This document shows positions 5,767 to 61,296 of a stretch of 64,000 nt of DNA, one piece after another. The stretch's first letter is position 1; each line of letters begins with the position of its first letter. The notes under the pieces were generated by a model. That model made no database searches. It was given only the letters and a program-made list of their open reading frames with translations, and was not told the DNA's origin. The DNA is from a virus (taxonomy: Duplodnaviria; Heunggongvirae; Uroviricota; Caudoviricetes): positions 83,287 to 147,286 of the IMG/VR virus record IMGVR_UViG_3300031143_000003; one strand, written 5' to 3'. The position numbers and the translations under genes are program-made.

Positions 5767-5767
5767 A

Positions 5768-8364: not shown

Positions 8365-8397
8365 ATTGTGTTTCCTTATGTATAAATATCAACGTTA

Positions 8398-49329: not shown

Positions 49330-49392
49330 ATGTATGATATAATATGTTTAATGTAAATTAATAGACCAGTTGTCTTGATCTATTATAAATAT

Positions 49393-49418
49393 AAGGGCTC
49401 AAATTAAATTGAGCCCTT
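49393..49418 (-). terminator. Stable hairpin, possible terminator
   Basis: AAGGGCTCAA-ATTAAA-TTGAGCCCTT, a 10-bp perfect stem, between the 49595 gene cluster and the 48475 gene. Followed on the minus strand by A/U-rich ATATTTATAATAG. Confidence 0.5.
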
Positions 49419-49450
49419 ATACACATACAAAAATTATTTCTACCGGAGGG

Positions 49451-49591
49451 TTAGTCCTTCTTATTCAACTCCTTCCTTAACAAGTCATTAATAAGTAATT
49501 TATCACCCAATCGAGTTTTAATGCGTCGATTTAATACGTAATGTATTGCGGTTACAACTGTTGCACCTACAATTAGTCCTAATATAAACAT
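49451..49591 (-). CDS. Small TM peptide (46 aa), below the ORF-track threshold
   Basis: MFILGLIVGATVVTAIHYVLNRRIKTRLGDKLLINDLLRKELNKKD. ATG lies 4 nt after the upstream stop. Confidence 0.35.
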   Translation of the reverse strand: MFILGLIVGATVVTAIHYVLNRRIKTRLGDKLLINDLLRKELNKKD

Positions 49592-49594
49592 ATA

Positions 49595-49891
49595 TTAGCC
49601 TCTATACGTTCCAGTACCTGACTCCAATTGTCCCATTCTCTTGGCGACATTATATTGTGTCTGAGCATCCATTAATGTTTCCATTATCTTATTTGACTCT
49701 GTAAACGTAATTTCAACTCGTTTGCCTGCAATTAATAGAGTACCAATAATTGGTTGAGTAGCTGGAGCAATTGGATGTAATGCTTTAGGTCCATGTGCTA
49801 GTTCAAAATCTATTGTTGCCCATGTTTTACCATACTTTGAAGGGTTAAATTTTGACTGATGATCTACGTTGGTTTTGAATGTCTTTGACAT
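49595..49891 (-). CDS. Hypothetical protein (98 aa)
   Basis: First ORF after the long AT-rich intergenic region. Confidence 0.45.
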   Translation of the reverse strand: MSKTFKTNVDHQSKFNPSKYGKTWATIDFELAHGPKALHPIAPATQPIIGTLLIAGKRVEITFTESNKIMETLMDAQTQYNVAKRMGQLESGTGTYRG

Positions 49892-50093
49892 AGTTTAATT
49901 GTTTTGGTTTGATTGTTAATTTGAATTATTGATTGTAATTACAGCGAAGCTGTATTTATTAATATATTATTTTCAGATATATTAATGTTATTAGGATATT
50001 AATAGATATTATATAATAACTAGTAATAAATAATTATGTTGTAAATATATTAATATTTTTTGACTCGGTAAAATGTTTTTCAACTTATTTTCA
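49892..50093 (-). promoter_or_regulatory. ~200-bp AT-rich intergenic region with reiterated ATATTAAT-like motifs (promoter cluster or origin candidate)
   Basis: Largest non-coding gap in the window. Repeated tatattaat / gatattaata / aatatattaata motifs. Confidence 0.4.
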
Positions 50094-50327
50094 TTATTTT
50101 GTTGAATTATTTTCAAATAGGTAGGCATCAATGTATATATGAATCAAATGACGCTTGTCTTCAATGGTCAATTGCTTTTCCATGATCTCTCCAATATACC
50201 TAGATTCATTGTCGCACATTATAATTGTTTCAGACATCGTATATAGATTTGATATTCCTTCAGCACCATTGATTGTCCAAGCACATTTGATTGTATCAAT
50301 ATTGATATATTGTTTGTTTGCACCCAT
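50094..50327 (-). CDS. Hypothetical protein (77 aa)
   Basis: ORF in the early-gene block. Confidence 0.4.
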   Translation of the reverse strand: MGANKQYINIDTIKCAWTINGAEGISNLYTMSETIIMCDNESRYIGEIMEKQLTIEDKRHLIHIYIDAYLFENNSTK

Positions 50328-50328
50328 A

Positions 50329-50772
50329 TTATTTTGTTTTTCCGTCTATAAAACGTTGTTGTTTCTTAATAGCTAAATCTAAATCAGTTTGTTTACGCTT
50401 ACGTGGAACAGCTTTCTTTAATACAATTGTCGCAGAAGATTTAACGGAAGGTTTCTTTTTGAGTTTTTTACGCTTAGATGGCTTAGCCTTAACTGTTGTA
50501 TAATTAGATCCATACTTACACGATTTAATTAATTGGCCATTTGCCGATATTATTCTAGCCTCTCCGACGCATGGGTACACCATGTAGCCCCGGATATCCC
50601 CGTTATTTATAACTGTAATAGTATATATCATTGCAGAGAAGTCAGTCGGGATATGATCCCAGTTATCTCCAGCGTAACCTATGCGAGTAACCTCACCGTA
50701 CCTAATGGTACCATCCATATATCTAAATTGAACATCGTCTCCGATTTTGTATTTGTGACTGCGTTTCCTCAT
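50329..50772 (-). CDS. Hypothetical protein with basic C-terminus (147 aa)
   Basis: ORF with KPSKRKKLKKKPS tail. Confidence 0.45.
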   Translation of the reverse strand: MRKRSHKYKIGDDVQFRYMDGTIRYGEVTRIGYAGDNWDHIPTDFSAMIYTITVINNGDIRGYMVYPCVGEARIISANGQLIKSCKYGSNYTTVKAKPSKRKKLKKKPSVKSSATIVLKKAVPRKRKQTDLDLAIKKQQRFIDGKTK

Positions 50773-50783
50773 ATTGATATGAT

Positions 50784-51233
50784 TTAGTTGGTTGCTAATA
50801 TATTAACGTGATCTACAACTGATGTCCAGTCTGGGAATTGATCAGTGCCAAAGTGGATTAGTTTTCCACTAAAATCTCCAGCTCCATTCCAAGTGTGATC
50901 GTCGATTAGTATGTCTCCGATCAATAGATCTTTTCTATGTGTCAATATTAATTTTTTTCTAAATTGTGGAAAGTGATCTGCTACCCATAATCGCTTTTGC
51001 GTCCAAGCATTTGGGTTATCCCAAGGAGCCGTAGAAGCGATCAACAGGTCATGACCGGAATCAAGTAAAGCTTGAACAGCTAACTTAGCTCCGGGTATAG
51101 GTTGTAATATCGAAAAATCGAGGTCTAAATCTGGACAATGTCCATCCCCTGTAAAGTTTGGGTGAGCTGATGCGAGTAATGCAAAATCTGCCAATACACC
51201 ATCTAGGTCAATGAATATTCGTAATTTGGTCAT
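50784..51233 (-). CDS. HAD-superfamily 5'(3')-deoxyribonucleotidase-like protein
   Basis: 149 aa. IFIDLDGVLADF matches the DxDGVLADF motif of NT5C-type deoxyribonucleotidases. Confidence 0.65.
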   Translation of the reverse strand: MTKLRIFIDLDGVLADFALLASAHPNFTGDGHCPDLDLDFSILQPIPGAKLAVQALLDSGHDLLIASTAPWDNPNAWTQKRLWVADHFPQFRKKLILTHRKDLLIGDILIDDHTWNGAGDFSGKLIHFGTDQFPDWTSVVDHVNILATN

Positions 51234-51268
51234 TTGTTATTTGTTATTTGTTATTTGTTATTTGTTAT
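51234..51268 (-). repeat. Heptanucleotide tandem repeat (TTGTTAT)x5 immediately 5' of the nucleotidase start codon
   Basis: ttgttat repeated five times at 51234-51268. It appears to be an expansion of the tttgtttaatttgttat part of the conserved intergenic element. Confidence 0.9.
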
Positions 51269-51348
51269 TTATAGTTAAATATAATCATAATCGATTAACC
51301 CGGAAAATAAATTTAACATTATTTTCAAAAGTTATTAACAATTTCTAT

Positions 51349-51699
51349 TTAACTGTGCATTTGATCGACTAGCATAATTAATCGTTTCTTTGCATCAGCG
51401 AGATCGGAAATAAGGATTTTTCTAATGTAGTATTCTAAATCGGTCTCCAATATGCTAGAGTATGCTCTAATTCTGTCTCGAGTAAATGCGATATCTTTAC
51501 ATAACATATCATGCATAATATCAGCGTCTAATTTATCGTTGGTTTCCGCTTGAATCGGAAGCTGATCCGAATCGTCAGCTAATTGCTGTATAAGCGCCTC
51601 TGATCGATCGCTAAAATACCGTTCAATTGATGTTGAGTCCAATGCACTCCAATGAGCCATTATAAATTCAGATGTGTTTGATTCTGTATTGTTTTCCAT
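51349..51699 (-). CDS. Hypothetical protein
   Basis: The track ORF 51349..51738 begins inside the conserved intergenic element (MLIFTYNQSNKPT). The start is reassigned to MENNTES. Confidence 0.45.
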   Translation of the reverse strand: MENNTESNTSEFIMAHWSALDSTSIERYFSDRSEALIQQLADDSDQLPIQAETNDKLDADIMHDMLCKDIAFTRDRIRAYSSILETDLEYYIRKILISDLADAKKRLIMLVDQMHS

Positions 51700-51794
51700 A
51701 GTAGGTTTGTTTGATTGGTTATAAGTAAATATAAGCATAATAATTTAACCGGAACAATCTTGGACTGTTTATTTTCAAAAGTTATTAACAATCT
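51700..51794 (-). promoter_or_regulatory. Conserved ~90-bp intergenic element (type 1: ...ttataagtaaatataagcat...aaccggaacaatc...ttattttcaaaagttattaacaat)
   Basis: One of at least 12 near-identical copies. This copy and those at 52828, 57009, 57729 and 60661 (51234-51345 also resembles the type-1 pattern) share the same two halves. Confidence 0.55.
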
Positions 51795-52208
51795 CTATTT
51801 GTCAAAATGATCTCGAGAGAGCTCTTCTATTCTATACTTAGCATGGCTTATAACCGATGAGGCTTTCCTATGGTGTTCTGCTACCTCTACTACGTTTTCA
51901 AGTTCCTCTGTAAGCATTTCTCTTACATACTGGTCTACGTATATTTTAACTAAGTAACTATGGAGCTCTTTAGCTTCAGTTGAAGTCGATGGCTGGTGTA
52001 TTGTATTTAATAACCTGTCATGCAATATATTCCGTTTATTTCCCTTTAGCCTATAGAAGAGGTTCCATCCAGCTTCTATGTCTTCTACATGCATTATTAC
52101 ACTATACTCTGCTAAGTATTCATCTAGAGATATCTGATTATCCATACGGTATGTCTGATCCCATTTGATCATTAGCTCTATAGCTTCTTCGTGTATATCT
52201 ATCGCCAT
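51795..52208 (-). CDS. Hypothetical protein (137 aa)
   Basis: ORF preceded by the AACTAAAACAAGACTAAG-ATG leader motif. Confidence 0.45.
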   Translation of the reverse strand: MAIDIHEEAIELMIKWDQTYRMDNQISLDEYLAEYSVIMHVEDIEAGWNLFYRLKGNKRNILHDRLLNTIHQPSTSTEAKELHSYLVKIYVDQYVREMLTEELENVVEVAEHHRKASSVISHAKYRIEELSRDHFDK

Positions 52209-52219
52209 CTTAGTCTTGT

Positions 52220-52435
52220 TTAGTATCCGTAATTAATTTTAATTGAAAGTGCTTCATTCTTACCTTCCTCACCAAAGGATTCCATTACTTCAATAGCAAT
52301 ATCGGTGTCTAGTTGACATATAATACTTGATACGCCACTTAAAAACGAATCCTTATTCTTTATTTCGTGCTCTTGAAGTAAATCGTTTAGCTCCATTGTA
52401 ATTGTATTTATCTTTCCTAGTCTTTCTCTATCCAT
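52220..52435 (-). CDS. Hypothetical protein (71 aa)
   Basis: ORF with the same conserved leader motif. Confidence 0.4.
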   Translation of the reverse strand: MDRERLGKINTITMELNDLLQEHEIKNKDSFLSGVSSIICQLDTDIAIEVMESFGEEGKNEALSIKINYGY

Positions 52436-52436
52436 C

Positions 52437-52655
52437 TTACTCTTGTTTTAGTTCTTTGATTCTATTTTTAAGATTATCTGATAGGTAGGTTTCTACTTCT
52501 TGATTAAAGTAATTTTCTAATTGCTTCTCCAACTCTTCTATTACTCGCTTGTTAGTAAGCTCCTTAATACGAACATCAATCAGTCTAGCTAAATCATTAG
52601 CTAATCGTTTTGGTACTAGACTTAATAAATTCGCTAATAGTATTTCAGTACTCAT
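52437..52655 (-). CDS. Hypothetical protein (72 aa), paralogue of the partial gene at the right window edge
   Basis: C-terminal NRIKELKQE matches ...NQRIKELKQD of the ORF fragment at 63899-64000. Confidence 0.4.
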   Translation of the reverse strand: MSTEILLANLLSLVPKRLANDLARLIDVRIKELTNKRVIEELEKQLENYFNQEVETYLSDNLKNRIKELKQE

Positions 52656-52656
52656 C

Positions 52657-52827
52657 TTAGTCTTGTTTTAGTTTGTTGAATCTATTTATAAAGTAGTAGT
52701 TTATCTCTCCACTATCATCTATAAGCTGGTAAACATCTTCGTCCAATGCAATTACATTGTACTTTGAACCTAATGTCAAATGGTTCTTCCATACGCCTGG
52801 ATCTATGCATTCTACAATTATCATCAT
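52657..52827 (-). CDS. Hypothetical small protein
   Basis: The track ORF 52657..52866 starts in the conserved element (MLIFNYNKLNKPI). Start reassigned to MMIIVEC. Confidence 0.4.
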   Translation of the reverse strand: MMIIVECIDPGVWKNHLTLGSKYNVIALDEDVYQLIDDSGEINYYFINRFNKLKQD

Positions 52828-52922
52828 AATAGGTTTGTTTAATTTGTTATAGTTAAATATAAGCATTATTCTTTAACCGGAACAATCCTATGTGATTATT
52901 TTCAATAAGTTATTAACAATTT
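52828..52922 (-). promoter_or_regulatory. Conserved intergenic element, type 1
   Basis: ggtttgtttaatttgttatagttaaatataagcattattctttaaccggaacaatcctatgtgattattttcaataagttattaacaat. Confidence 0.55.
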
Positions 52923-53285
52923 CTAACGATCACTGCGTTTGAGTATTTGTTTCAGAATAGCCCGATCTGCCATAGATTCAATTAGGTCAGATTCATCTCC
53001 CAATATTGCATGATCCCGGCCTAGTTTATATGCCGGCAAATATTCATCTGCAATAAATTTGATGTTTGCATCTGCCCAACCCCATAATTCGTCGTGCCAA
53101 CCTTGTCCGTACCAATCTAATAATATCTTTTCATCTTGTGTCATAGTTTTGTCCGTGTTAGTTTGTTGTTTTTTAATGCAATTTTCACATAAAACTGCGT
53201 TATGTAATCCTCTACCGATAATGCAGCGACATTGGTTACATAATGTAGCGCCATACCCGTTGTTGAATTTATGTATTGCTTTCAT
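52923..53285 (-). CDS. Cys-rich zinc-binding hypothetical protein (120 aa)
   Basis: CNQCRC...CENC. Confidence 0.45.
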   Translation of the reverse strand: MKAIHKFNNGYGATLCNQCRCIIGRGLHNAVLCENCIKKQQTNTDKTMTQDEKILLDWYGQGWHDELWGWADANIKFIADEYLPAYKLGRDHAILGDESDLIESMADRAILKQILKRSDR

Positions 53286-53303
53286 ATTGAATGTCTATTA
53301 ATG

Positions 53304-53765
53304 TTAAAATGAACCAGGAGCGACTTGCATAACCGTTAATCCTCTATCTCTCCACATTTTCACGACCTTATCGCGATCATCGAATATACATAGTACATCA
53401 GATTGATTTGGAAATTTAGCGTCGAACCAATCTGATTTGAGCTTATCGTCGGGTGTGAATGAATTTAGTGGTCTCATTGTGATACTGTCAAATGGTACAT
53501 TGAATTTATCAAGCCATTTTGTTGTAGTGTCCTTTGTTCCAGTACATCGACCAGAAAATATCGCAATATTGAAACCTTGTGATTTGAGTGTTTGTGCCAT
53601 GATTATGACTGGATTATTGGGCTTATCCATTTGGATATTATTTGGATCAAAAAACTTAGTCCAATTAATCTTCCCATTGTCCTTTGTGCTAAAGGATCGT
53701 CGATCATCAATAAGTGCTAGGGTGCCATCTAGATCGAAAATTACCCATTTGTTTGAATTGCTCAT
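53304..53765 (-). CDS. Polynucleotide 3'-phosphatase, homologue of the T4 Pnk C-terminal HAD phosphatase domain (stand-alone)
   Basis: 153 aa. VIFDLDGTLA (DxDGT). IAIFSGRCTGTKDTTTKWL versus T4 VVVSGRESGTKEDPTKYY. C-terminus IFDDRDKVVKMWRDRGLTVMQVAPGSF versus T4 [27 protein letters not shown]. Confidence 0.85.
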   Translation of the reverse strand: MSNSNKWVIFDLDGTLALIDDRRSFSTKDNGKINWTKFFDPNNIQMDKPNNPVIIMAQTLKSQGFNIAIFSGRCTGTKDTTTKWLDKFNVPFDSITMRPLNSFTPDDKLKSDWFDAKFPNQSDVLCIFDDRDKVVKMWRDRGLTVMQVAPGSF

Positions 53766-53833
53766 AGTTGATATGTTTAATTGTTATAAGTAAATATAAG
53801 CAATTAAAATGACATAAAAAAATATTATATCAA

Positions 53834-54232
53834 CTATTTTATAATTAATATATTTGCCAATTCGATGGCCTTAAGGTACTGGCCATTTTCATCTTCAACT
53901 GTCCAAAAAACAATTGACTTTTCCTCATGGAATATACAAATTTTGGATTTATCTCCGTCTGTTATGTAACAGTCATATGCATCATCGCATTCTGGAATCA
54001 ATACCCACCAAGTATGAATAATCTCGGTATCGTTTAACATTACTTCTATGTACTCTTCGTGGATTGTAAATGCAACTTCAGATTTGAATGATTCATCTAA
54101 TTGATAAGCCATACCATTCCAATCATACAGGTTGGTCACATCTGATATATAGGTTGTCTGTGCGGTACATACTGTCGATAATAACATGAATATACATAAT
54201 GCCGCCTTAATCTTTTTCATCTTTTGCTCCAT
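53834..54232 (-). CDS. Secreted hypothetical protein (signal peptide)
   Basis: 132 aa. N-terminal MKKIKAALCIFMLLSTVCTAQ. Confidence 0.5.
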   Translation of the reverse strand: MEQKMKKIKAALCIFMLLSTVCTAQTTYISDVTNLYDWNGMAYQLDESFKSEVAFTIHEEYIEVMLNDTEIIHTWWVLIPECDDAYDCYITDGDKSKICIFHEEKSIVFWTVEDENGQYLKAIELANILIIK

Positions 54233-54281
54233 GGTTTAAATCTGTTCATTAATAAATATACATGGTGCTAATTATTGTTGA

Positions 54282-54355
54282 GTGGACCCTACTGGACTCG
54301 AACCAGTGACCTTAACATTATGAGTGTTCTGCTCTAACCAACTGAGCTAAGGGTC
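54282..54355 (-). tRNA. tRNA with CAU anticodon (Met or Ile2/lysidine type)
   Basis: Minus strand GGACCCTTAGCTCAGTTGGTTAGAGCAGAACACTCATAATGTTAAGGTCACTGGTTCGAGTCCAGTAGGGTCCA. 7-bp acceptor, D-arm GCTC/GAGC with GG, anticodon loop CTCATAA, T-arm ACTGG-TTCGAGT-CCAGT. 74 nt, no encoded CCA. Confidence 0.8.
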
Positions 54356-54439
54356 CGGGTGATGGTTGTCTAACTTTAATTATGGGTGGAAAACCCAACT
54401 AAAGACCTTAGTTTGCTGGTACCATCAACAGCTATACTG

Positions 54440-55297
54440 TTATTTGCCGGTTACGGACTTAAATAACTGTGGTACTACGCCGTATGTTGGCAATTTACCA
54501 TCCCATTTCTCGATCATCTGTTGTTGAACCAATAGATCGGTCAATGCTGTGTTTTTCTGCTGGAAAGCATAACGTTCGGCCTCTGCATTAATTCGCATAG
54601 CTTTCGCATCTCCCTCTGCTTCTGCAACAATTTTCTCTGCATCTGCTGTAGTTTGAGCCAATTCCTCTTGCTTACGTAATGCCATTTGAGTAGCATTAAC
54701 CTTCGCTTCGATGTTCGACACAACCGATTTTGGAAGTCTCAACTCATTTAATAATACAACTTGTTCGATGACAAATCCTTCTGGCTCGAGAATCGTTCTA
54801 ATCGCATTTTCTGACTCAGTTTGGAAGTCATTACGACGCTCATATAATTCCGAAGCTGAATAGTTTGCAGCTGTTGAGTTAAACGCATCACGCATATAGT
54901 TCTTGACGATCGTTTTTTCTAACTCTCCAATTGGTCGACGATATTTCTTAAATATACTTACAACATTTTCAGCTGGAGTATAATAGTTTATAGATACATC
55001 GAATGCAACAACTAGTCCATTACTCGTCGTTATTCTAAATTCCTCATTTTCATCGGAATGACGAGTGTCTTGCTTAGTGTAAACTGCGTTTTGAACATAC
55101 GTTGGTACTTCATATACCTCTGTCGTGAATGGATTGTACCAAACTGCTCCAGTAACTGCTGTTACGTTTTGCACTCCCTTTTCATTTCCATATAGATTAA
55201 CTCTAATTCCTTCGTGTCCTGCGTCAATACGCTCATATCCACATGAAGATAACAATAACGTTGCTACCCCTAATACTAATAAAATTTGCTTTTTCAT
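54440..55297 (-). CDS. SPFH/band-7 (stomatin/prohibitin/HflK-like) domain lipoprotein
   Basis: 285 aa. Lipoprotein signal MKKQILLVLGVATLLLSSC. C-terminal ...NATQMALRKQEELAQTTADAEKIVAEAEGDAKAMRINAEAERYAFQQ is typical of SPFH family coiled-coil/A-E-rich tails. Confidence 0.55.
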   Translation of the reverse strand: MKKQILLVLGVATLLLSSCGYERIDAGHEGIRVNLYGNEKGVQNVTAVTGAVWYNPFTTEVYEVPTYVQNAVYTKQDTRHSDENEEFRITTSNGLVVAFDVSINYYTPAENVVSIFKKYRRPIGELEKTIVKNYMRDAFNSTAANYSASELYERRNDFQTESENAIRTILEPEGFVIEQVVLLNELRLPKSVVSNIEAKVNATQMALRKQEELAQTTADAEKIVAEAEGDAKAMRINAEAERYAFQQKNTALTDLLVQQQMIEKWDGKLPTYGVVPQLFKSVTGK

Positions 55298-55301
55298 ATA
55301 A

Positions 55302-55466
55302 CTACCTGTTGATTAATTTAATACCGGAATAAATTGTTAAAAGTACGACTAAGAATCCGGCGATATTCTTAGTTGTATTCGGTTCACTAATTAGGTCGAG
55401 CCCAATTGTTATCATAAATATTGCTACAAACAATGTTATGATTATTCCCATTATTTTTTCGATCAT
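55302..55466 (-). CDS. Small two-TM membrane peptide (54 aa), possible NfeD-like partner of the SPFH protein
   Basis: MIEKIMGIIITLFVAIFMITIGLDLISEPNTTKNIAGFLVVLLTIYSGIKLINR. Start overlaps the upstream gene's stop (ATGA) and it ends 5 nt before the SPFH start. Not in the ORF track (under 60 aa). Confidence 0.35.
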   Translation of the reverse strand: MIEKIMGIIITLFVAIFMITIGLDLISEPNTTKNIAGFLVVLLTIYSGIKLINR

Positions 55467-56143
55467 TTTGCGTATGTTAAAATGTTACCTTGGCCAGTAT
55501 TCTTGCCAAATCTTCCGTCTTTTACGCATGAACCGTTACTATAAAGTGTGTCGATTCCTGCAATCGTTTTTGTTCCAGCATTGATTATGCCTTCGCAATT
55601 GTGAATGTGTCCAAATAATACTAGTTTTGGACGAACAGTCAATAATCGTTTTGCTAAAGCCGAACATCCACAGTATTCTAATGCTCCGAATCTATCAGTT
55701 GATAGGTCCAATATGCCCTTAGGTGGTCCGTGCACAATAACAATGTTCGTGTTATCTGGAATTTCAGCCCAAAGTCGACTTAATTTTGATCGATTTTTCA
55801 TGAACGACCAGTCTCCGAATGTTGGAGAGAACGGTGATCCCCATATGTTAATACCATCGATCGTTACTGATTCATTTTCCAAATAGACGATACCATTTGC
55901 CTTGAATAGGTCCCTATCGACAAGTCCATATTCGATACTTGAGTCGTGATTTCCAGCAACGAATATCTTGTGCTTGATTTGTAGACTACTAAACCATGTT
56001 ATAAACGAACGAACCTCAGGCTCATTTGCATATTGATTTCTAGGGTTCGAACAGTCTCCTGAAAAGATCACCATGTCAATATCTGATGGTATATTCAAGT
56101 GACCATGATACGTGTGAGTATCGCTTATGTGCCAAATTCTCAT
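55463..56143 (-). CDS. Calcineurin-like metallophosphoesterase
   Basis: 226 aa. HISDTH, GD, GNHD, VHGPP, GHIH motifs. Confidence 0.7.
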   Translation of the reverse strand: MRIWHISDTHTYHGHLNIPSDIDMVIFSGDCSNPRNQYANEPEVRSFITWFSSLQIKHKIFVAGNHDSSIEYGLVDRDLFKANGIVYLENESVTIDGINIWGSPFSPTFGDWSFMKNRSKLSRLWAEIPDNTNIVIVHGPPKGILDLSTDRFGALEYCGCSALAKRLLTVRPKLVLFGHIHNCEGIINAGTKTIAGIDTLYSNGSCVKDGRFGKNTGQGNILTYAK

Positions 56144-56412
56144 TAGTCTTGTCTTTCTAGGGTGTATATTGAATTGAGTGTGTCGATCGTTAGTGATCCA
56201 TCAACGCCAAACTGAACTGTGTTTATGACGGTGGTCTGCCAAACATATTCGTTTGTAAATGGACCGAGTATTAGACTTCTACCAATTTTTATGCCGTCGA
56301 TACCGATGATAAGTTCATCGAATGTGTCGTCGTCTTTCCATGATATAAATCCAATTTGATCAGATAGTTTGGTTAAACCGTCTCGTGATCTAGTTAATTT
56401 CCATTCTGTCAT
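56143..56412 (-). CDS. Hypothetical protein (89 aa)
   Basis: ORF, start/stop coupled with neighbours. Confidence 0.4.
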   Translation of the reverse strand: MTEWKLTRSRDGLTKLSDQIGFISWKDDDTFDELIIGIDGIKIGRSLILGPFTNEYVWQTTVINTVQFGVDGSLTIDTLNSIYTLERQD

Positions 56413-56413
56413 G

Positions 56414-56662
56414 TTAGTATGCTTTTATGAATGTTCCTTCTTTACTCGATAAAATTGATAGGCTGAATTCCTTATCGAGGTGCTTAGTAATACTTGATAT
56501 GTCCATAGATCGCAATGCCATCATAAACATATTATAGTTACTGTCTCCGCCGTTTTTGACAAAATACGAAAAAAGCAATTGCACATTCAAATTACTTGAA
56601 TTGCGCATTGCAATGTATTCTTCCCTAGACATAGCTAATATTACCGTGACCAACCATTCCAA
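56414..56662 (-). CDS. Hypothetical protein (82 aa)
   Basis: ORF. 38-nt overlap with the upstream gene suggests the start may be further downstream. Confidence 0.35.
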   Translation of the reverse strand: MEWLVTVILAMSREEYIAMRNSSNLNVQLLFSYFVKNGGDSNYNMFMMALRSMDISSITKHLDKEFSLSILSSKEGTFIKAY

Positions 56663-57008
56663 CTTCCAATGTCGGAACTAATCCATCGCTATGTAAATCT
56701 CCGTATGATTCGTTCATGAACCAGTTTTCAGAATCAGAAACTGTTCTACTGAATTCCTTGAAGATATCGTCTAATGTGAAACCTTCTCCGAATCTGTAGC
56801 ACATTGTAGCAACCACATTTCTAAATGCTGTTTCCGAACTTGGATTGCTTTCATCATCGGCTAACTTGCGAAGTTTACCACCCAATTCCATAATAATTGT
56901 CTTCATGTTATCAGCAACTGTATCGTTGTGGCTGTACATTTCGCTTGAATGTGGCTTTGTAATTTCGATTCCGTAAATGAATTGATTTGGTTTTTTAGTT
57001 CTGCTCAT
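56625..57008 (-). CDS. Hypothetical protein (127 aa)
   Basis: ORF preceded by the conserved element, with AAACCTACTTATT-ATG leader. Confidence 0.45.
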   Translation of the reverse strand: MSRTKKPNQFIYGIEITKPHSSEMYSHNDTVADNMKTIIMELGGKLRKLADDESNPSSETAFRNVVATMCYRFGEGFTLDDIFKEFSRTVSDSENWFMNESYGDLHSDGLVPTLEVGMVGHGNISYV

Positions 57009-57120
57009 AATAAGTAGGTTTAGTTAGTGTTAATTTGTTATTTATAGTATAAATATAAGCAATATTTTCCCAACCGGAAAACGTTTTTACATTTATTTTC
57101 AAAAGTTATTAACAATCTAA
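57009..57120 (-). promoter_or_regulatory. Conserved intergenic element, type 1 (contains TATAAATA on the coding strand)
   Basis: ...tatttatagtataaatataagcaatattttcccaaccggaaaacg...ttattttcaaaagttattaacaat. A near-identical copy lies at 57729-57840. Confidence 0.55.
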
Positions 57121-57279
57121 TTCTACAGGCCTAATATATATGCAGTCAACATTATTGCTACGTATAAAAAACCGCTAACGTCTATTTTTGTGTGTTGTTT
57201 CATATGAATATAAATATGATTGGCTAGCCGAAGTGTATTAATTCAATGTTACTAGATTGTTAACATTATGATACATTAT

Positions 57280-57519
57280 CTAGGCCTTTGTTTTTCCGAA
57301 AACTGCGTAGTATTTGCCATCCCAAAATTTGGATAGTCTGTCTTTTCCAGTTAGGAAATATGGATTGGCAGATGAACTAAATGCTGAGCTGTAATATCCT
57401 CTGTTTTTGCGATAGTCGTATGTAATACCATTCAACTTACAAACGAAGGTTATAATCTCAGTGTATGTTGCTCCACGTTTTGTTGCAACGTATTCTAATA
57501 CTTGTGATTTGATTGTCAT
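57280..57519 (-). CDS. Hypothetical protein (79 aa)
   Basis: ORF. Confidence 0.4.
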   Translation of the reverse strand: MTIKSQVLEYVATKRGATYTEIITFVCKLNGITYDYRKNRGYYSSAFSSSANPYFLTGKDRLSKFWDGKYYAVFGKTKA

Positions 57520-57530
57520 AATTGGATTGT

Positions 57531-57728
57531 TTACTTTATGAAATTACTATATACAAAACTTGCTACAGCTGCAATTGCTACAACAGATACGACCAATAGA
57601 ATTGGAATCCAGATTGGCGATAGAACCCATGTCCATGACCATGAAATTAGGTTTGTTAACTTCAAGATAACGAATACAATCAAAACGATTGATGATGAGT
57701 TGATTCCTGATTTTGCTTGATTTTGCAT
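57531..57728 (-). CDS. Small two-TM membrane protein (65 aa)
   Basis: Hydrophobic ORF (IVLIVFVILKL...WIPILLVVSVVAIAAVASFVY) directly after a conserved intergenic element. Confidence 0.45.
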   Translation of the reverse strand: MQNQAKSGINSSSIVLIVFVILKLTNLISWSWTWVLSPIWIPILLVVSVVAIAAVASFVYSNFIK

Positions 57729-57840
57729 GTTGCGTAGGTTTAGTTAGTGTTAATTTGTTATTTATAGTATAAATATAAGCAATATTTTCCCAACCGGAAA
57801 ACAATTGATCATTTATTTTTAAAAGTTATTAACAATTTAA
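57729..57840 (-). promoter_or_regulatory. Conserved intergenic element, type 1 (near-identical to 57009-57120)
   Basis: About 70 bp is identical to the 57009 copy. Confidence 0.55.
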
Positions 57841-57980
57841 AGTATGATAATTACTGATTGGGCTGCTGCCGTACAATCTAATAAAGTCCGATTTAAGAAT
57901 AGTTTCTACTTCTGAGTCTGGCCATACCATTGAAACCATATTGCTGTACACGTCTAATACTGTCATATTTTGTTGATTGG

Positions 57981-58259
57981 TTATATTGATTTTATTGTAC
58001 TAAGAATTTGTCGTAAATCGGAGTTTATCGCCTTAAGGTCTGCATAAATGCGCCCACATTCAAAACTTAATTGACTAAGCTCTAAATCCTGCTTACCAAC
58101 CCTGCCGGCATGTGTTTGAATTGCGTCAAACCGATCGGCTATTTGTTCTAAATCAGTCGATTCATATTCAAATTGATCAACTTCTGGCGGTGTAGATCCA
58201 GTTTGACCACTTGGTTCAGATGACGTTCGAGTCATTGTACTAATCCATCGTTTTTTCAT
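57981..58259 (-). CDS. Hypothetical protein (92 aa)
   Basis: ORF. Confidence 0.4.
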   Translation of the reverse strand: MKKRWISTMTRTSSEPSGQTGSTPPEVDQFEYESTDLEQIADRFDAIQTHAGRVGKQDLELSQLSFECGRIYADLKAINSDLRQILSTIKSI

Positions 58260-58260
58260 A

Positions 58261-58491
58261 TTAATCTTTTTTTGTTATGAAGTTACTAGATAATTTGCGT
58301 AGCGCCGAAGATAAATGTTCGTTCAAATTTGAACCAGTTCTAGCCATTTCTTCACAGATCAATTCTCGAATTTCGTATAATTCTGCGTTAGATAGATCTT
58401 CCATATTATTTATCTGCTTTAAATCCAGAGATTGGCTTTCTTTCAATATCCAAATCAGATATTGTATGTTCGATTGCGTCCATTCTGTCAA
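58261..58491 (-). CDS. Hypothetical protein (76 aa; start may be at internal Met 58404)
   Basis: Overlaps the upstream ORF by 86 nt in another frame. The internal start MEDLSNAE would remove the overlap. Confidence 0.35.
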   Translation of the reverse strand: MTEWTQSNIQYLIWILKESQSLDLKQINNMEDLSNAELYEIRELICEEMARTGSNLNEHLSSALRKLSSNFITKKD

Positions 58492-58684
58492 GAATAATTG
58501 CTAGTGCTTCGTTTGTACTTTCAACGATCGTCTTATCAGCAGCCTCGAGAGATTTGATCTTTGGATTGCTCTTAACGTTTAGCTTGTTCCAAACCATGAA
58601 ACCAAATATTGTTGGAGCTAATACTAATCCAATACCAGATGCTTTACCTAGCATGTCTAAAAATAATGTTAATTCTGTTTCCAT
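58406..58684 (-). CDS. Small membrane protein (92 aa)
   Basis: TM segment GIGLVLAPTIFGFMVW. Follows a conserved intergenic element. Confidence 0.45.
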   Translation of the reverse strand: METELTLFLDMLGKASGIGLVLAPTIFGFMVWNKLNVKSNPKIKSLEAADKTIVESTNEALAIILDRMDAIEHTISDLDIERKPISGFKADK

Positions 58685-58763
58685 AATGTTGTTTGATATG
58701 TTAATTAATAAATGTAAATATAAGCATTAAGTTTGACACGGGAAAATTATAGTGAACTTATTT
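58685..58763 (-). promoter_or_regulatory. Conserved intergenic element, type 2
   Basis: ...aaatgtaaatataagcattaagtttgacacgggaaaattatagtgaacttattttcaaat. Confidence 0.5.
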
Positions 58764-58979
58764 TCAAATTAGTTTCATATCAACCAACTTGTTTACGACA
58801 ACTGCTACGTCCCTATGCGTTGCAATAACCGATCCATCTATTTCTAGTACCCATTTTCTACTGACTCTACTTAGCCAGATGTTGATGTCTCGATCGTCAT
58901 GATCAACTGATACAAATGTGTCGTTCACTGCGTTTGCAGATATAATGTCTTCGACTAATCGAGTTGCTGCATTTTCCAT
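58764..58979 (-). CDS. Hypothetical protein (71 aa)
   Basis: ORF. Confidence 0.4.
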   Translation of the reverse strand: MENAATRLVEDIISANAVNDTFVSVDHDDRDINIWLSRVSRKWVLEIDGSVIATHRDVAVVVNKLVDMKLI

Positions 58980-58984
58980 AATAG

Positions 58985-59191
58985 TTATTTTATAAATTCA
59001 AGTGTTGATGGTAGATCTACGAGTTCAAAATCTCGTCCGTTCCATCTAGCCGAGTGGCCGTTGTTCAATTCAACGAGTGGAAAATTTCCATCGTGAACCA
59101 GTACTACTTCAACATTGACGTAGTTTCTTGCGGTTGAGGAGCATGGCACGATATATTGTGCTGAATCTCCAATTTGGATATCATTTTTCAT
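58985..59191 (-). CDS. Hypothetical protein (start reassigned to MKNDIQIG)
   Basis: The track ORF 58985..59245 overlaps the upstream gene by 47 nt. The internal Met removes the overlap. Confidence 0.35.
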   Translation of the reverse strand: MKNDIQIGDSAQYIVPCSSTARNYVNVEVVLVHDGNFPLVELNNGHSARWNGRDFELVDLPSTLEFIK

Positions 59192-59198
59192 ATTGATT

Positions 59199-59498
59199 TT
59201 ATATGTGTTGTTTCCATTCTGGGTGAAGGTTATGGTGAGCATCATCTAAATATACGATGGTTTTGAAATCGCAGTATGGATCATCGATACCCAATTCCCT
59301 TGCTGTTAATTGGAATATGATACCTTTCTTAGTTAAGCTACCAAGAACTCCTCTAATAGATTTAGCTGGAATTCCAGTTTGTCTAACTAGATCTGCATCT
59401 GAAACATCGCTGAATCCAGGCTCAGCGTATAATCCTTGTATTAGTTCAGTTAGTACCTGTGTTTCTAATGTTGTGATGTTGAGATTGTGATTTTCCAT
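59199..59498 (-). CDS. Hypothetical protein (99 aa)
   Basis: ORF directly downstream of a conserved element. Confidence 0.45.
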   Translation of the reverse strand: MENHNLNITTLETQVLTELIQGLYAEPGFSDVSDADLVRQTGIPAKSIRGVLGSLTKKGIIFQLTARELGIDDPYCDFKTIVYLDDAHHNLHPEWKQHI

Positions 59499-59600
59499 GT
59501 GGTAGGTATTTAGTTATTGTTAATTTGTTATAGTTAAATATAAGCATTAAGTTTGACATAAAAAAACTTTATGTTAACTATTTTCAAATTAATTTAAGTG
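59499..59600 (-). promoter_or_regulatory. Conserved intergenic element, type 2
   Basis: ...gttatagttaaatataagcattaagtttgacataaaaaaactttatgttaactattttcaaat. Confidence 0.5.
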
Positions 59601-59903
59601 ATCCCAGTAGGAATCGAGCCAGTATTCTTCAGTTACCTAATATTCAAACTTGGTTTTGATGGACTATTCTCTTCCCGCTAATAGCTTCCAATTTCCAGTA
59701 TCACCACGGGGAGGTGTTTGATTGATACCATTTTTAATATTATTCTACTAGTTCGTATACGTCGTATGGTTCGTTAACTCCATTTGTGAATCTGTTAACT
59801 GTAATCACCTTGTACTTGTCGCCGTTTATGTAAATGAAATCGTTCATAATGTGTAAGTTTTAATTTGTATAAGTAAATATAATCATTTAGTCTCGAGCTA
59901 CAA

Positions 59904-60299
59904 TTATGACGCTGGTCCGATTATTGATTCCATTTGCTCTGCCATTCGATTGATAACTGTTTGGCGTTTAACTTCAAGATTTATAAGGCGTTCCAGCTTT
60001 GATGAATAAAAAGCAAGGTGCTTTGTGTTTAGCTGTTCGACAGCCTGATTAACTTTGTGCTGATAAAAACCAATCTTGCCCTGGTAGTGTGCTGTCTCCG
60101 TCTCTTCAACTTCGTACGTTATATACCTAGTTTCGTCTGTGTCAATCTGAACGATTCGTTTAACGTGTTGGTCCAATGAAATATCGTGACCTAATGACTG
60201 AACTGGTACATGAGCACCTTCAGCGAGTAATCCATACTGATTAGCATCGATGATAAATGTTTGGTCGAATTTTGTTGTGATCTGGTAGGTAGTAGTCAT
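59904..60299 (-). CDS. Hypothetical protein
   Basis: The track ORF 59904..60350 starts inside the conserved element (MSNLMLIFNYNKLNKST). Start reassigned to MTTTYQ. Confidence 0.45.
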   Translation of the reverse strand: MTTTYQITTKFDQTFIIDANQYGLLAEGAHVPVQSLGHDISLDQHVKRIVQIDTDETRYITYEVEETETAHYQGKIGFYQHKVNQAVEQLNTKHLAFYSSKLERLINLEVKRQTVINRMAEQMESIIGPAS

Positions 60300-60378
60300 A
60301 GTTGATTTGTTTAATTTGTTATAGTTAAATATAAGCATTAAGTTTGACATAAAAAAACTTTTATGTACTTATTTTCAA
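60300..60378 (-). promoter_or_regulatory. Conserved intergenic element, type 2
   Basis: gttgatttgtttaatttgttatagttaaatataagcattaagtttgacataaaaaaacttttatgtacttattttcaat. Confidence 0.5.
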
Positions 60379-60660
60379 TTAAAATATCAACATACTAACT
60401 GGAACATTGTAACTGTTACCAGCATCATCTACAGCGACTATCTTAGTGCTATTGATCTTCGTAATAACAAAGTCGGTATTTCTACATTTTTTGTGATCGA
60501 TTCCAACTTTCATTCCAACTCTTAGTAGTGCTTTAGTTGAACGATCAGATGTTGATTTCTTCGCTTTAATTGAGCCGATAACCAAGATGTTTAGGCTACG
60601 TAATTGCTCGATTGGAAGATCTGCGGTTGAAATTGCTTTAACGATTTGTGCGTAAGTCAT
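60379..60660 (-). CDS. Hypothetical protein
   Basis: The track ORF 60379..60699 starts inside the conserved element (MLIFNYNKLNKPT). Start reassigned to MTYAQIVK. Confidence 0.45.
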   Translation of the reverse strand: MTYAQIVKAISTADLPIEQLRSLNILVIGSIKAKKSTSDRSTKALLRVGMKVGIDHKKCRNTDFVITKINSTKIVAVDDAGNSYNVPVSMLIF

Positions 60661-60760
60661 AGTAGGTTTGTTTAATTTGTTATAGTTAAATATAAGCATA
60701 ATAATTTAACCGGAACAATCCTATGCAATTATTTTCAATAAGTTATTAACAATTTGGAAT
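60661..60760 (-). promoter_or_regulatory. Conserved intergenic element, type 1
   Basis: agtaggtttgtttaatttgttatagttaaatataagcataataatttaaccggaacaatcctatgcaattattttcaataagttattaacaat. Confidence 0.55.
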
Positions 60761-60764
60761 GTTG

Positions 60765-60857
60765 TAAGGGAGGCAGGACTCGAACCTGCGCGATAAGGAT
60801 TTGTTAGCCTTATCTCTCTTATTTGCGTATAGCGTTTCCCAGTTTCGCCACTCCCTT
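60765..60857 (-). tRNA. tRNA-like element (93 nt) with canonical acceptor stem and T-arm but atypical internal arms; possible class-II tRNA or tRNA-like RNA
   Basis: Minus strand AAGGGAG...GCAGG-TTCGAGT-CCTGC-CTCCCTT-A. Perfect 7-bp acceptor and 5-bp T-stem with TTCGAGT loop. A 3-bp D-stem (GCG/CGC) with GG-containing loop, and a 7-bp hairpin GATAAGG-CTAACAAAT-CCTTATC. No standard 5-bp/7-nt anticodon arm could be placed. Confidence 0.4.
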
Positions 60858-60871
60858 ATTTGCCACTAATA

Positions 60872-61294
60872 TTATTCTAATTCTACTAAGGCTTTAACTA
60901 ACGCCTTCAATTTAGAAAAGTTGACTACCACGAATCCAGTTGAATCTACAACATGGAACGGTTCAAGACCGCCAACATCAGTTGACGTTAGATCTAATCC
61001 ATGTCGATCGAATGTATAGTATATAAATCCTGGTGCACCTGGTTCCGGTTCCTGATATATTTCGCTGAATCCAATACTGAGTAGGGATTTGGGCGTAATG
61101 TCCTGATTCTCGACTTGCTCCAAATGTGCATCAATGGCTTCATCAAATAATTCTTGCGAGTATGTTAACGTAAACGCAGCGTCGCATGTTGCAGCTTGCC
61201 AATCAGATTCATCTTGTTCCAATTGAGTTGGTCTTGGACGCGTAAACGTTTTTGTTTGTCTAAGCTCGTCCATTGTTCGTTTTTTACTTAACAT
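60872..61294 (-). CDS. Hypothetical acidic protein (140 aa)
   Basis: ORF. Confidence 0.45.
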   Translation of the reverse strand: MLSKKRTMDELRQTKTFTRPRPTQLEQDESDWQAATCDAAFTLTYSQELFDEAIDAHLEQVENQDITPKSLLSIGFSEIYQEPEPGAPGFIYYTFDRHGLDLTSTDVGGLEPFHVVDSTGFVVVNFSKLKALVKALVELE

Positions 61295-61296
61295 AA

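Follow-up and report, generated by a model that had tools for sequence, protein, structure and literature searches.

Three genes lie closely packed on the minus strand of a phage genome fragment of 64,000 nucleotides (hereafter the window), encoding a calcineurin-like metallophosphoesterase (MPP), a small membrane peptide and an SPFH-domain lipoprotein. The question that this locus raises is whether the three form a single functional unit, and what such a unit would do in an infected cell. The initial annotation had treated them as one translationally coupled cassette, and its three open reading frames are found at exactly the coordinates it gave, all on the minus strand:

54440..55297, minus strand: SPFH/Band-7 lipoprotein gene, 285 aa (Pfam Band_7, phrog_200, AF2 model, Foldseek)
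55302..55466, minus strand: two-TM hairpin partner gene, 54 aa (family HMM, 207 clusters, natural fusions, charge distribution)
55463..56143, minus strand: calcineurin-like MPP gene, 226 aa (Pfam Metallophos, PADLOC, structures, motifs)

The tight coupling holds as well, with the MPP stop codon and the hairpin start codon overlapping as ATGA and four bases separating the hairpin stop from the SPFH start. The phosphoesterase, two-TM and SPFH lipoprotein calls are likewise borne out below. The conserved unit, however, is two genes (hairpin and SPFH) and not three. A megablast search of 50,697 phage records with a 5-kb query spanning the cassette returned no match, so the locus has no annotated close relative.

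Probable Transcription Unit and Neighbourhood

Five further features frame the cassette:

57014..57120, minus strand: promoter-like repeat (repeat families D1-D5, D8), the nearest copy upstream of the cassette, with its core GCTTATATTTA preceding the start codon (ATG at 57008) by about 30 nt
56143..57008, minus strand: three small ORFs (127, 82 and 89 aa; ORF list) between the promoter-like repeat and the MPP gene
54282..54356, minus strand: tRNA-Met (CAT), found by ARAGORN and by the Rfam tRNA model (69.7 bits)
53834..54232, minus strand: 132-aa ORF with an N-terminal signal peptide seen in its sequence, last gene of the inferred unit
53776..53848, minus strand: following copy of the promoter-like repeat, in front of the HAD-PNKP gene (repeat families, 12-copy alignment)

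Each of the 12 aligned repeat copies lies just upstream of a minus-strand start codon, and we infer that the copy at 57014..57120 starts the transcription unit holding the cassette and that the copy at 53776..53848 marks its downstream limit. A sigma-70 promoter scan did no better than chance, with 18 sites where 15.8 were expected, and was not used. No terminator-like sites were found inside the cassette, and the MPP appears to be co-transcribed with the hairpin-SPFH pair in the window; the small ORFs are probably co-transcribed with the MPP too, because neither repeat copies nor terminators lie between them. None of these three ORFs matches a Pfam family, and the 89-aa one matches phrog_38150. 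The SPFH stop codon is followed after 83 nt by the tRNA-Met, which falls within the probable unit, and the 132-aa ORF, which had no family match in Pfam, PHROG or PADLOC searches, is lineage-specific, being present in the related loci L001-L004 and missing from L005.

The gene neighbourhood carries little information on biological role. An RNA ligase, PNKP or AAA_33 kinase is seen near the SPFH gene in the window and in loci L005 and L262, and PaFlo8 sits in an rtc locus (PMC13086221). An RNA-repair link of SPFH was considered and set aside: RNA ligases make up only 2 of the 141 neighbours in 36 dereplicated loci, a link is not established by the one paper located on the point, and we keep the observation as accessory-region co-location.

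The SPFH Lipoprotein

The 285-aa protein matches Band_7 (PF01145) over residues 23-220 with 76.6 bits against a gathering cutoff of 23.6 (E 3.1e-21), and phrog_200, annotated as “lipoprotein”, over residues 1-276 (4.9e-57). Its N-terminus reads as a signal peptide with the lipobox LLSSC19, where Cys19 is the predicted lipidation site, and in this family the lipobox Cys is separated from the invariant RIDAGH strand by 1-3 residues only. The signal peptide is followed by SPFH1/2 domains, one helix of about 75 residues and a disordered C-terminal tail. In the AF2 model (pLDDT 81.5) strands span residues 20-106, helices 109-173 and a further helix 190-264 before the disordered tail, and Foldseek aligns the model over its full length with prohibitin, stomatin, erlin, HflK/C and QmcA protomers (E down to 1e-13); as modelled, the protein shows the complete cage-forming architecture. 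Profile and domain architecture both place it in the SPFH / Band 7 superfamily, and the profile match together with the lipobox Cys, a predicted lipoprotein signal, places it in phrog_200. Among solved structures prohibitin comes nearest to it by sequence, at only 3.5e-05. In SPFH-centred loci the SPFH profile detected the anchoring gene alone and no second SPFH gene. A PADLOC search gave no match for the SPFH protein or the hairpin, and a defence-system identity of either was rejected on this ground.

The phrog_200 SPFH family comprises 749 phage records, and Kayvirus MbpS, PaP4 gp18, KB57_117, RB43 ORF139c and Vi01-like gp200 belong to the same family as the window protein. SPFH genes were already reported in 2006 from the T4-like phages 44RR, Aeh1 and RB43 (PMC1524935), so the novelty for T4-like phages suggested by the initial annotation does not extend to the genes themselves, but it stands for their function, which is given as uncharacterised (PMC8540360, PMC13239085). 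Earlier descriptions of phrog_200 members do not report the hairpin partner family. The nearest cellular homologues come from Cytophagales (50-60% identity), where the lipobox is kept and the hairpin is absent, indicating that the SPFH protein in itself can do without a hairpin.

The Hairpin Partner

A 54-aa reading frame could arise by chance; this one did not, because a relative with an SPFH protein 86% identical to that of the window has a homologous hairpin ORF (56% identity) at the corresponding place, and because the hairpin family HMM has a single match in the whole 64-kb window, the ORF at 55302-55466 (5.6e-14). The peptide has two hydrophobic segments, as the two-TM call requires, with the conserved turn LISEPNTTKNIAG between them and a short basic C-terminus. 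BLAST-level searches with the 54-aa peptide reached the two nearest lineages only, and topology and the HMM were used instead. In the representative library the family comprises at least 207 clusters at 50% identity, its members being two-TM hairpins of 54-85 aa whose one conserved feature is the turn, with the consensus L-[ILM]-[ST/N]-x-[AP]-[SN]-[TD]-x-x-N-x-x-G; Gly37 is invariant. Over 186 members the values of K+R / D+E are 2.1/0.3 in the N-terminus, 0.4/1.1 in the loop and 4.8/2.5 in the C-tail. By the positive-inside rule both ends would thus be cytoplasmic, and this charge distribution, together with the natural fusions described below, would put the conserved turn on the periplasmic side, beside the lipid-anchored SPFH domain.

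The family is apparently undescribed before. Hairpins matched no Pfam or NCBIfam family, with the exception of homologue P0144, which carries the precomputed Pfam accession PF27675. The initial annotation had likened the peptide to NfeD, and this part of it fails: 22 family members gave no NfeD (PF01957) match at E<=1, nor was there one in NCBIfam, and 54 residues spent on two TM helices and a turn leave no room for an OB-fold domain. NfeD, holin, SieB and Imm identities were all rejected, their matches being sub-threshold and of the kind typical for TM peptides (SieB, 0.005-0.5). The hairpin does share with NfeD that it is a membrane protein in an operon with an SPFH gene, as seen in adjacency, overlap and fusions, and we describe it as a distinct family in an operon-partner role which, by analogy, resembles that of NfeD without homology.

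Pairing of Hairpin and SPFH Across Viral Loci

The expectation that the small peptide is conserved beside SPFH genes in relatives is confirmed by the family HMM, by topology and by the downstream genes. In nearly all related viral loci the hairpin lies directly upstream of the SPFH-lipoprotein gene on the same strand. By the family HMM it is directly adjacent in 114 of 171 loci and displaced by at most about 1 kb, same strand and usually with one small gene between, in 11 further loci; the HMM matched same-strand ORFs adjoining SPFH genes or one small gene away and no others, the next unrelated match appearing at E~0.1. Topology independently finds a partner in 22 of 27 viral/metagenomic clusters at 90%, against 5 of 237 control ORFs (clustering was done at 90%, single-linkage at 70% having joined unrelated lineages). 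All three testable profile-only hairpin matches have an SPFH lipoprotein gene downstream, and the hairpin stop overlaps or lies within 10 nt of the SPFH start in 17 of 36 dereplicated loci.

Four natural fusions join the two proteins in one chain (P0032, P0047, P0070 and P0086), in the order hairpin, basic linker, lipobox signal peptide, SPFH. The AF2 model of P0047 (pLDDT 83.6) shows TM1, turn, TM2, signal-peptide helix and SPFH, with the hairpin part at a pLDDT of only about 70-77 on a shallow alignment. An alignment built to give the fusions more depth in their hairpin region (A5) was dropped, as MAFFT placed hairpins on the signal peptide. The pair is also found in the crAss-like IAS virus, in Klebsiella phage KB57 as genes 115 and 117 and in Burkholderia phage PhiBP82.1 as genes 29 and 30, as well as on chromosomes of the Bacteroidota Chitinophaga and Sphingobacterium. 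The pairing does not extend to T4-like RB43, which lacks the hairpin and has a TM-anchored SPFH protein, and Kayvirus MbpV and PaP4 gp17 have a single TM each and no relationship to the hairpin.

The Phosphoesterase

The 226-aa enzyme matches Metallophos (PF00149) with 52.7 bits against a gathering cutoff of 21.5 (E 9.8e-14), and all five catalytic motifs are intact and invariant (D8-H10; G29-D30; G64-N65-H66-D67; H138; G178-H179-I180-H181), so that profile and motif set (DxH, GD, GNH[DE], H, GHxH) together identify a calcineurin-like metallophosphoesterase. Its nearest solved structures are MPPED2 (3rl4, 2.5e-23) and Rv0805/Icc, which have the same calcineurin-like fold and the full motif set. 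Over residues 1-196 it matches the PADLOC candidate PDC-S10 (4.4e-62), a candidate defence family that is here encoded in a phage genome. From these similarities we propose a class-III-phosphodiesterase-like, PDC-S10-like nucleotide or nucleic-acid phosphoesterase acting as a separate enzyme. A characterised phage metallophosphoesterase, gp48, is a DNA-damaging mycobacteriophage enzyme (PMC12287305).

Comparison With Known Systems

SPFH-NfeD operons such as E. coli QmcA-YbbJ (8z5g), P. horikoshii PH1511-PH1510 and S. aureus FloA-NfeD resemble the phage pair in combining an SPFH scaffold gene with a small membrane partner in one operon, and Foldseek recovers the same SPFH fold. The partner differs, since the phage protein is a 54-85-aa hairpin lacking an OB-fold, a ClpP domain and a PF01957 match, and so would the orientation, the phage SPFH protein being a predicted periplasm-facing lipoprotein and the cage of QmcA being turned to the cytoplasm. 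HflK/HflC-FtsH (7vhq, 7wi3, 9cz2) is alike in its protomer architecture and in having periplasm-facing SPFH domains on the inner membrane, a placement that is predicted on the phage side; the phage, however, has a single SPFH gene with a lipobox in place of a heteropair with TM anchors, which sets it outside the class, and sequence similarity falls below HMMER detection against PDB.

Among lysis proteins, class II holins have a topology like that of the hairpin, but neither a significant holin profile nor endolysin linkage accompanies it. Two-component spanins, encoded in a lysis cassette, combine a small outer-membrane lipoprotein with an inner-membrane subunit that has one N-terminal TM and a coiled coil in the periplasm; in the phage pair it is the lipoprotein that is large and has the coiled coil, and its membrane partner is a two-TM hairpin without periplasmic domain. 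A spanin identity was rejected, as the subunit roles differ and the pair lies outside a lysis cassette. T4 Imm and Sp and the prophage exclusion lipoproteins (T5 Llp, Cor) are small inner-membrane, periplasm-facing or lipid-anchored phage proteins that are encoded in accessory regions and have the envelope as their site of action. Their likeness to the pair is one of functional analogy only, homology not being detected.

Proposed Mechanism and Alternative Explanations

Given the observed genes, domains, conservation, synteny, fusions and fold, we favour, at somewhat better than even confidence, a two-gene membrane module whose products would assemble at the inner membrane through a periplasmic contact. 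The SPFH protein would be exported and lipid-anchored at Cys19, placing its scaffold (SPFH1/2, long wall helix and cap segment) on the periplasmic face of the membrane; once the signal peptide is removed, the mature protein would have no TM segment of its own. The co-translated hairpin would sit in the inner membrane with both termini cytoplasmic and present its conserved turn to the periplasm, where it may bind the membrane-proximal SPFH face. It would thereby serve as the integral-membrane subunit that nucleates or pins a putative SPFH ring on the inner membrane, a role taken by NfeD or an N-terminal TM anchor in other SPFH systems; NfeD-type partners are believed to help SPFH proteins assemble (PMC13086221). 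In an infected cell the phage complex would probably wall off or stabilise an area of the envelope, and our best single guess, a tentative one, is that it blocks secondary DNA injection or protects the inner membrane from premature damage. An SPFH protein of a P. multocida prophage was found in outer-membrane vesicles (PMC9872710), which counts against the inner-membrane geometry, and sorting of the lipoprotein to the outer membrane could change it.

Four other explanations were weighed against this membrane module. A periplasmic SPFH ring might imitate HflK/C, caging or competing for host FtsH or another inner-membrane protease and so altering turnover of host or phage membrane proteins, with the hairpin as anchor or protease-facing adaptor. 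The fold similarity to HflK/C in the FtsH complexes, the predicted periplasmic SPFH domain, the JGI name of the homologues (“regulator of protease activity HflC”) and similar speculation in several phage papers (PMC10269572, PMC8540360) speak for it, but the lone SPFH gene, a predicted lipid anchor where HflK/C have FtsH-contacting N-terminal TM helices, the distant prohibitin as nearest solved sequence relative, the occurrence of the module in strictly lytic phages that take no lysogeny decision (PMC8540360) and the lack of a linked protease gene among the neighbours of the 36 dereplicated loci make it unlikely. We consider it quite unlikely that the pair sets lysis timing, with a class-II-holin-like or antiholin-like hairpin whose clustering is controlled by the SPFH ring. 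Holin families give no significant match (phrog_4712, 0.094; Phage_holin_3_6, 0.02) in spite of the holin-like size, topology and charged tail; lysis enzymes are rare among the 141 neighbours (Glucosaminidase, 2); the only muralytic candidate of the window (SLT, 47029-47475) lies about 7 kb off in a different unit; and Chitinophaga and Sphingobacterium carry the pair in unremarkable chromosomal surroundings. Kayvirus mbpS does lie, with the small membrane gene mbpV, between endolysin and transglycosylase (PMC7150955), and the RB43 SPFH gene follows rI and rI.-1, yet the small or anchoring elements of these phages are not homologous to the hairpin.

A true three-gene cassette, as initially annotated, would have the phosphoesterase work with the hairpin-SPFH complex, for example as a membrane-organised enzyme on a nucleotide signal or lipid head-group. 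Besides the ATGA overlap, the order MPP-hairpin-SPFH recurs in three loci (L073, L086, L093) without other shared synteny, a second MPP subfamily lies one or two genes from the pair in L023, L087-L092 and L156, and Metallophos is the commonest neighbour family (5 of 141). However, its frequency within two genes of the pair is not significantly above that farther out in the same loci (5/141 against 5/260, p=0.25), an SPFH or hairpin gene within 4 kb is missing from all 80 of the closest viral MPP relatives, the MPP of the closest relative is displaced by about 4.5 kb and has an AAA_33 kinase and an RNA ligase next to it, and the enzyme, with neither signal peptide nor TM segment, should be cytoplasmic whereas the SPFH domain would be periplasmic. 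We therefore hold a functional triplet to be very doubtful; the MPP is a common, independently distributed phage gene and neighbourhood cargo rather than a member of the module, and two non-orthologous MPP families beside the pair in about six lineages may reflect a loose functional link. That phages merely acquired a host-derived SPFH operon with little or no role in infection is highly improbable: cellular homologues reach 50-60% identity in Cytophagales and Bacteroidota chromosomes carry the pair, but it is kept in hundreds of phage records across several phyla and morphotypes, its ORFs are intact and tightly coupled, and the hairpin is far more consistent in viral than in cellular loci.

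Going beyond the two-gene module, phages of several bacterial phyla might carry a dedicated set of two components, an SPFH lipoprotein facing the periplasm and a hairpin that acts as nucleator in place of NfeD, to build a fenced compartment on the host inner membrane as an envelope-level weapon, for instance by excluding superinfecting genomes or neutralising membrane-targeting abortive-infection effectors, with neighbouring phosphoesterases as a loosely coupled third activity; we regard this broader reading as speculative and unlikely.

Implications for SPFH Biology

The pair is a new partner variant of the known SPFH-plus-partner theme. Structural work on SPFH scaffolds (prohibitin, stomatin, flotillin, HflK/C) is very active, with their actual function under debate. 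Hundreds of phage genomes have an annotated SPFH lipoprotein, and publications as late as 2026 call its role unclear. Because the hairpin is specific, co-translated and sometimes fused, because its motif would face the compartment of the SPFH domain, and because the phosphoesterase falls outside the unit, a vague annotation becomes a defined two-component system with direct mutational targets. As a minimal, genetically tractable SPFH-plus-partner system with a clear selective context, namely infection, the pair could throw light on the contribution that partner proteins make to SPFH assemblies generally.

Gene Organization of the Cassette

The source of the window is a large myovirus: baseplate-wedge and tail-fibre genes of T4 type are present, and an identical SPFH gene was found on a 147-kb contig. 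No close relative was detected among 50,697 deposited phage genomes by megablast with the 5 kb around the cassette. The initial annotation had described a coupled cassette of a metallophosphoesterase (MPP), an NfeD-like small TM peptide and an SPFH lipoprotein, and the three ORFs indeed lie on the minus strand at the following positions.

55463-56143, minus strand: MPP ORF, 226 aa (Pfam Metallophos, 9.8e-14)
55302-55466, minus strand: two-TM "hairpin" ORF, 54 aa, the only match of the hairpin family HMM in the window
54440-55297, minus strand: SPFH ORF, 285 aa (Pfam Band_7, 3.1e-21; phrog_200 "lipoprotein", 4.9e-57)
54282-54356: tRNA-Met(CAT), 83 nt downstream of the SPFH gene
60764-60857: tRNA-Leu(CAA)

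Both domains named by that annotation were matched by Pfam above the gathering score, and the tight coupling was found as an ATGA overlap of the MPP stop with the hairpin start and a gap of 4 bases from the hairpin stop to the SPFH start. The SPFH protein begins with MKKQILLVLGVATLLLSSC, a predicted lipoprotein signal.

A Hairpin Partner Conserved Beside SPFH Genes

SPFH relatives were taken from metagenomes, IMG/VR (80 loci) and GTDB species genomes (80 loci). The nearest relative (SPFH protein 86% identical) holds at the hairpin position an uncalled 57-aa ORF, 56% identical to the 54-aa ORF and with an ATGA overlap at either end. The small ORF is undetectable by BLAST in more distant relatives, where position and topology still reveal it: an ORF with two hydrophobic segments, ending at or a few nt from the SPFH start, occurs in 22 of 27 viral/metagenomic 90%-clusters, against 5/237 of the other ORFs of at least 150 aa from the same loci. 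These small proteins can be aligned as a single family consisting of TM1, a turn with the consensus L-[ILM]-[ST/N]-x-[AP]-[SN]-[TD]-x-x-N-x-x-G, TM2 and a basic tail. When the family HMM was run against 29,782 six-frame segments representing all loci and the window, every match below 1e-8 was to an ORF lying upstream of an SPFH gene on the same strand, while the best unrelated match had E~0.1. The hairpin adjoins the SPFH gene in 114 of 171 loci and is displaced by up to about 1 kb, usually by one small gene, in 11 more; of 36 dereplicated loci, 17 have a hairpin stop that overlaps the SPFH start or is at most 10 nt from it. Conservation of the small peptide next to SPFH genes is therefore upheld.

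Essentially all viral loci hold the partner by HMM, L014 being the exception, and it also occurs in Chitinophaga, Sphingobacterium, Siphonobacter and Alistipes loci. The pair of the first three genera lies in ordinary chromosomal contexts, and their homologues are more distant than those of Cytophagales. The hairpin gene is absent from the loci of Cytophagales and Bernardetiaceae (L094-L117), which hold the closest cellular SPFH homologues (40-60% identity; 50-60% for those on Cytophagales chromosomes) and retain the lipobox despite this absence.

Searching 1.84 billion representative proteins with a hairpin-only profile (HMMER, E<=0.001) returned 207 clusters, nearly all of 54-120 aa. Three matches from outside the SPFH-anchored loci were inspected, and wherever this was testable an SPFH lipoprotein gene lay directly downstream (2.9e-61, 1.1e-20 and 5.2e-63 with the SPFH profile). 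Another contig, the fourth, stops within an apparent N-terminal extension of the same kind. Four proteins of 335-345 aa (P0032, P0047, P0070 and P0086) are natural fusions, in the order hairpin with motif, short basic linker, lipobox signal peptide and SPFH. Among phages of other host groups, cultured or named, the pair is present in the crAss-like IAS virus (61-aa ORF with LLTVSNTAANIAG), in Klebsiella phage KB57 (gene 115, LVSAKDTISVIGG, with one gene before the SPFH gene) and in Burkholderia phage PhiBP82.1 (gene 29). In contrast, the SPFH neighbors in Pseudomonas phage PaP4 and Staphylococcus phage G1 are single-TM proteins unrelated to the hairpin, the Kayvirus counterpart pair being MbpV/MbpS (PMC7150955), and the SPFH protein of T4-like RB43 (ORF139c; L263 10590-12243, record 80589-82242) is TM-anchored without a hairpin partner.

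The NfeD likeness did not hold up. Among 22 diverse hairpin members none matched NfeD (PF01957) and no other Pfam/NCBIfam family was matched consistently, which argues that the hairpin resembles NfeD by its place in the operon and not by homology. Four of the 22 matched phrog_1130 "membrane protein", and the JGI label of one homologue derives from the NfeD COG. Matches to SieB, holin and TMEM128 profiles were sub-threshold and usual for TM peptides. The homologue P0144 carries a precomputed accession, PF27675.1, outside the Pfam set searched; the family may have been curated in Pfam very recently.

Topology and Predicted Structure

Averaged over 186 two-TM members, the segment before TM1 has 2.1 K+R and 0.3 D+E, the loop 0.4 and 1.1, and the segment after TM2 4.8 and 2.5. 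Under the positive-inside rule, this would place both hairpin termini in the cytoplasm and the conserved turn in the periplasm. The fusions would demand this topology too: their next helix, that of the signal peptide, has to cross the membrane outward. In the AF2 model of the fusion P0047 (pLDDT 83.6), helices 2-26, 30-50 and 54-68 precede the SPFH body. That of the window's SPFH protein (pLDDT 81.5) shows a signal helix, SPFH1/2 domains and one helix (190-264) followed by a disordered tail; its full-length Foldseek matches are protomers of the cage-forming prohibitin, stomatin, erlin, HflK/C, QmcA and flotillin complexes, and a PDB sequence search detected only prohibitin-2 (3.5e-05). Since the lipobox Cys lies 1-3 residues from the invariant RIDAGH strand, the SPFH domain would have to lie flat against the membrane.

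Transcription Unit and Repeats

An intergenic element of 70-100 nt occurs in at least 12 copies within 47712-61619 (at ~47.7, 50.0, 51.3, 51.7, 52.8, 53.8, 57.0, 57.7, 58.7, 59.5, 60.3, 60.7 and 61.5 kb), each immediately preceding a start codon on the minus strand. Its coding-strand sequence is TTGAAAATAA ... ATGTCAA or CCGGTT ... GCTTATATTTA ... ~30 nt ... ATG, the core GCTTATATTTA being invariant. Probably a promoter or regulatory element of the phage, it would delimit the transcription units of a small-gene block. Neither a copy nor a terminator-like site was found between 53,849 and 57,013, so the cassette is probably transcribed together with three small upstream ORFs, tRNA-Met and a putatively secreted 132-aa ORF, the last gene of this unit. 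tRNA-Met(CAT) thus falls inside the predicted unit.

53834-54232: 132-aa ORF with an N-terminal signal peptide, without family match, restricted to the window's own lineage (L001-L004)

A second short repeat, CATCTTAGTCTTGTTTTAGTT (families D6, D7 and D9), lies on the plus strand at several gene junctions (52193-52691 and 62928-63933); on the minus strand it terminates in a start codon and may therefore be a conserved translation-initiation region.

The Phosphoesterase and Its Neighborhood

All five calcineurin motifs of the MPP are intact, and its nearest solved structures are the class III cyclic-nucleotide phosphodiesterases MPPED2 (2.5e-23) and Rv0805/Icc. Degradation of nucleotide signals or RNA-end healing is a candidate role. 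The MPP also matches the PADLOC candidate defence family PDC-S10 (4.4e-62), and in this respect a candidate defence gene has a homologue in the phage; our literature search found no functional study of PDC-S10. A regex screen found a DxH...GD...GNH[DE] string in a 1048-aa ORF (27179-30325), which could have arisen by chance or could mark a further metallophosphoesterase domain.

The MPP family is plentiful: viral contigs yield at least 551 loci. Within 4 kb of the 80 closest relatives among these there is neither an SPFH gene nor a hairpin. In the nearest relative, the gene upstream of the small ORF is not a phosphoesterase; an MPP homologue (75% identical) lies ~4.5 kb downstream, adjoining an AAA_33 kinase, with an RNA ligase nearby. 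Adjacency to the pair is limited to the window lineage and three loci sharing no other synteny with it (L073, L086 and L093); at L077 the MPP is 1.7 kb away, and a second MPP subfamily lies one or two genes from the pair at L023, L087-L092 and L156. Metallophos is the commonest Pfam family, with 5 matches among the 141 nearest neighbors of 36 dereplicated loci. An internal control weakens this signal: MPP-motif genes number 5/141 within two genes and 5/260 farther out at the same loci (p=0.25). Partner-less bacterial loci gave 0/270. We conclude that MPPs are common cargo of an accessory neighborhood and not a third subunit; a loose link is possible. Other cargo includes RNA ligase, NT5C, PNKP phosphatase, peptidyl-tRNA hydrolase and tRNAs. 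In the window and its relatives, the SPFH pair sits amid nucleotide/RNA end-processing genes.

53304-53765, window: phosphatase-only HAD_PNKP domain
50784-51233, window: NT5C
5110-6021 and 8129-8858, relative L005: RNA ligase and AAA_33 kinase with MPP
1-323, relative L262: T4 RNA ligase 1

The P. aeruginosa rtc RNA-repair locus also holds an SPFH gene (PMC13086221); the association of SPFH with RNA-repair genes was not significant in the loci compared.

Possible Roles of the Pair

The best-supported explanation is a single membrane complex of hairpin and SPFH lipoprotein: the hairpin would provide the TM element missing from the mature lipoprotein, and its conserved periplasmic turn would contact the SPFH domain. 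A true three-gene cassette including the MPP is improbable: the gene order is kept at the three loci without other synteny, against the absence of SPFH genes near the closest MPP relatives, and the MPP, lacking an export signal, is thus predicted to be cytoplasmic whereas the SPFH domain would be periplasmic.

As for what a two-gene membrane module would do, envelope fencing or protection, including superinfection exclusion, is our tentative suggestion. Published proposals for phage SPFH are speculative, namely lysogeny control via FtsH, help in secretion, and adsorption or DNA entry (PMC10269572, PMC7150955, PMC13239085), and other authors called the role unclear (PMC8540360). An FtsH/HflKC-like role of the pair seems unlikely to us. 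Lysis timing is a still weaker candidate, as the analysis of the 141 neighbors at 36 dereplicated loci revealed no lysis enrichment; in RB43, rI.-1 and rI (lysis inhibition) directly precede the SPFH gene, which possibly hints at a role in the envelope or in lysis for this lineage. A PADLOC search found no defence-system similarity of the pair, and we hold it very improbable that the two are passenger genes.

SPFH lipoproteins have been noted in T4-like phages since 2006 (PMC1524935), the phage family phrog_200 is widely annotated (749 records), and SPFH-plus-partner operons are likewise familiar. Within the libraries and literature searched, what is new is the hairpin partner family, its near-universal coupling to a lipoprotein subfamily in phages, and the natural fusions; the hairpin-SPFH pair is one on which clear experiments are possible.
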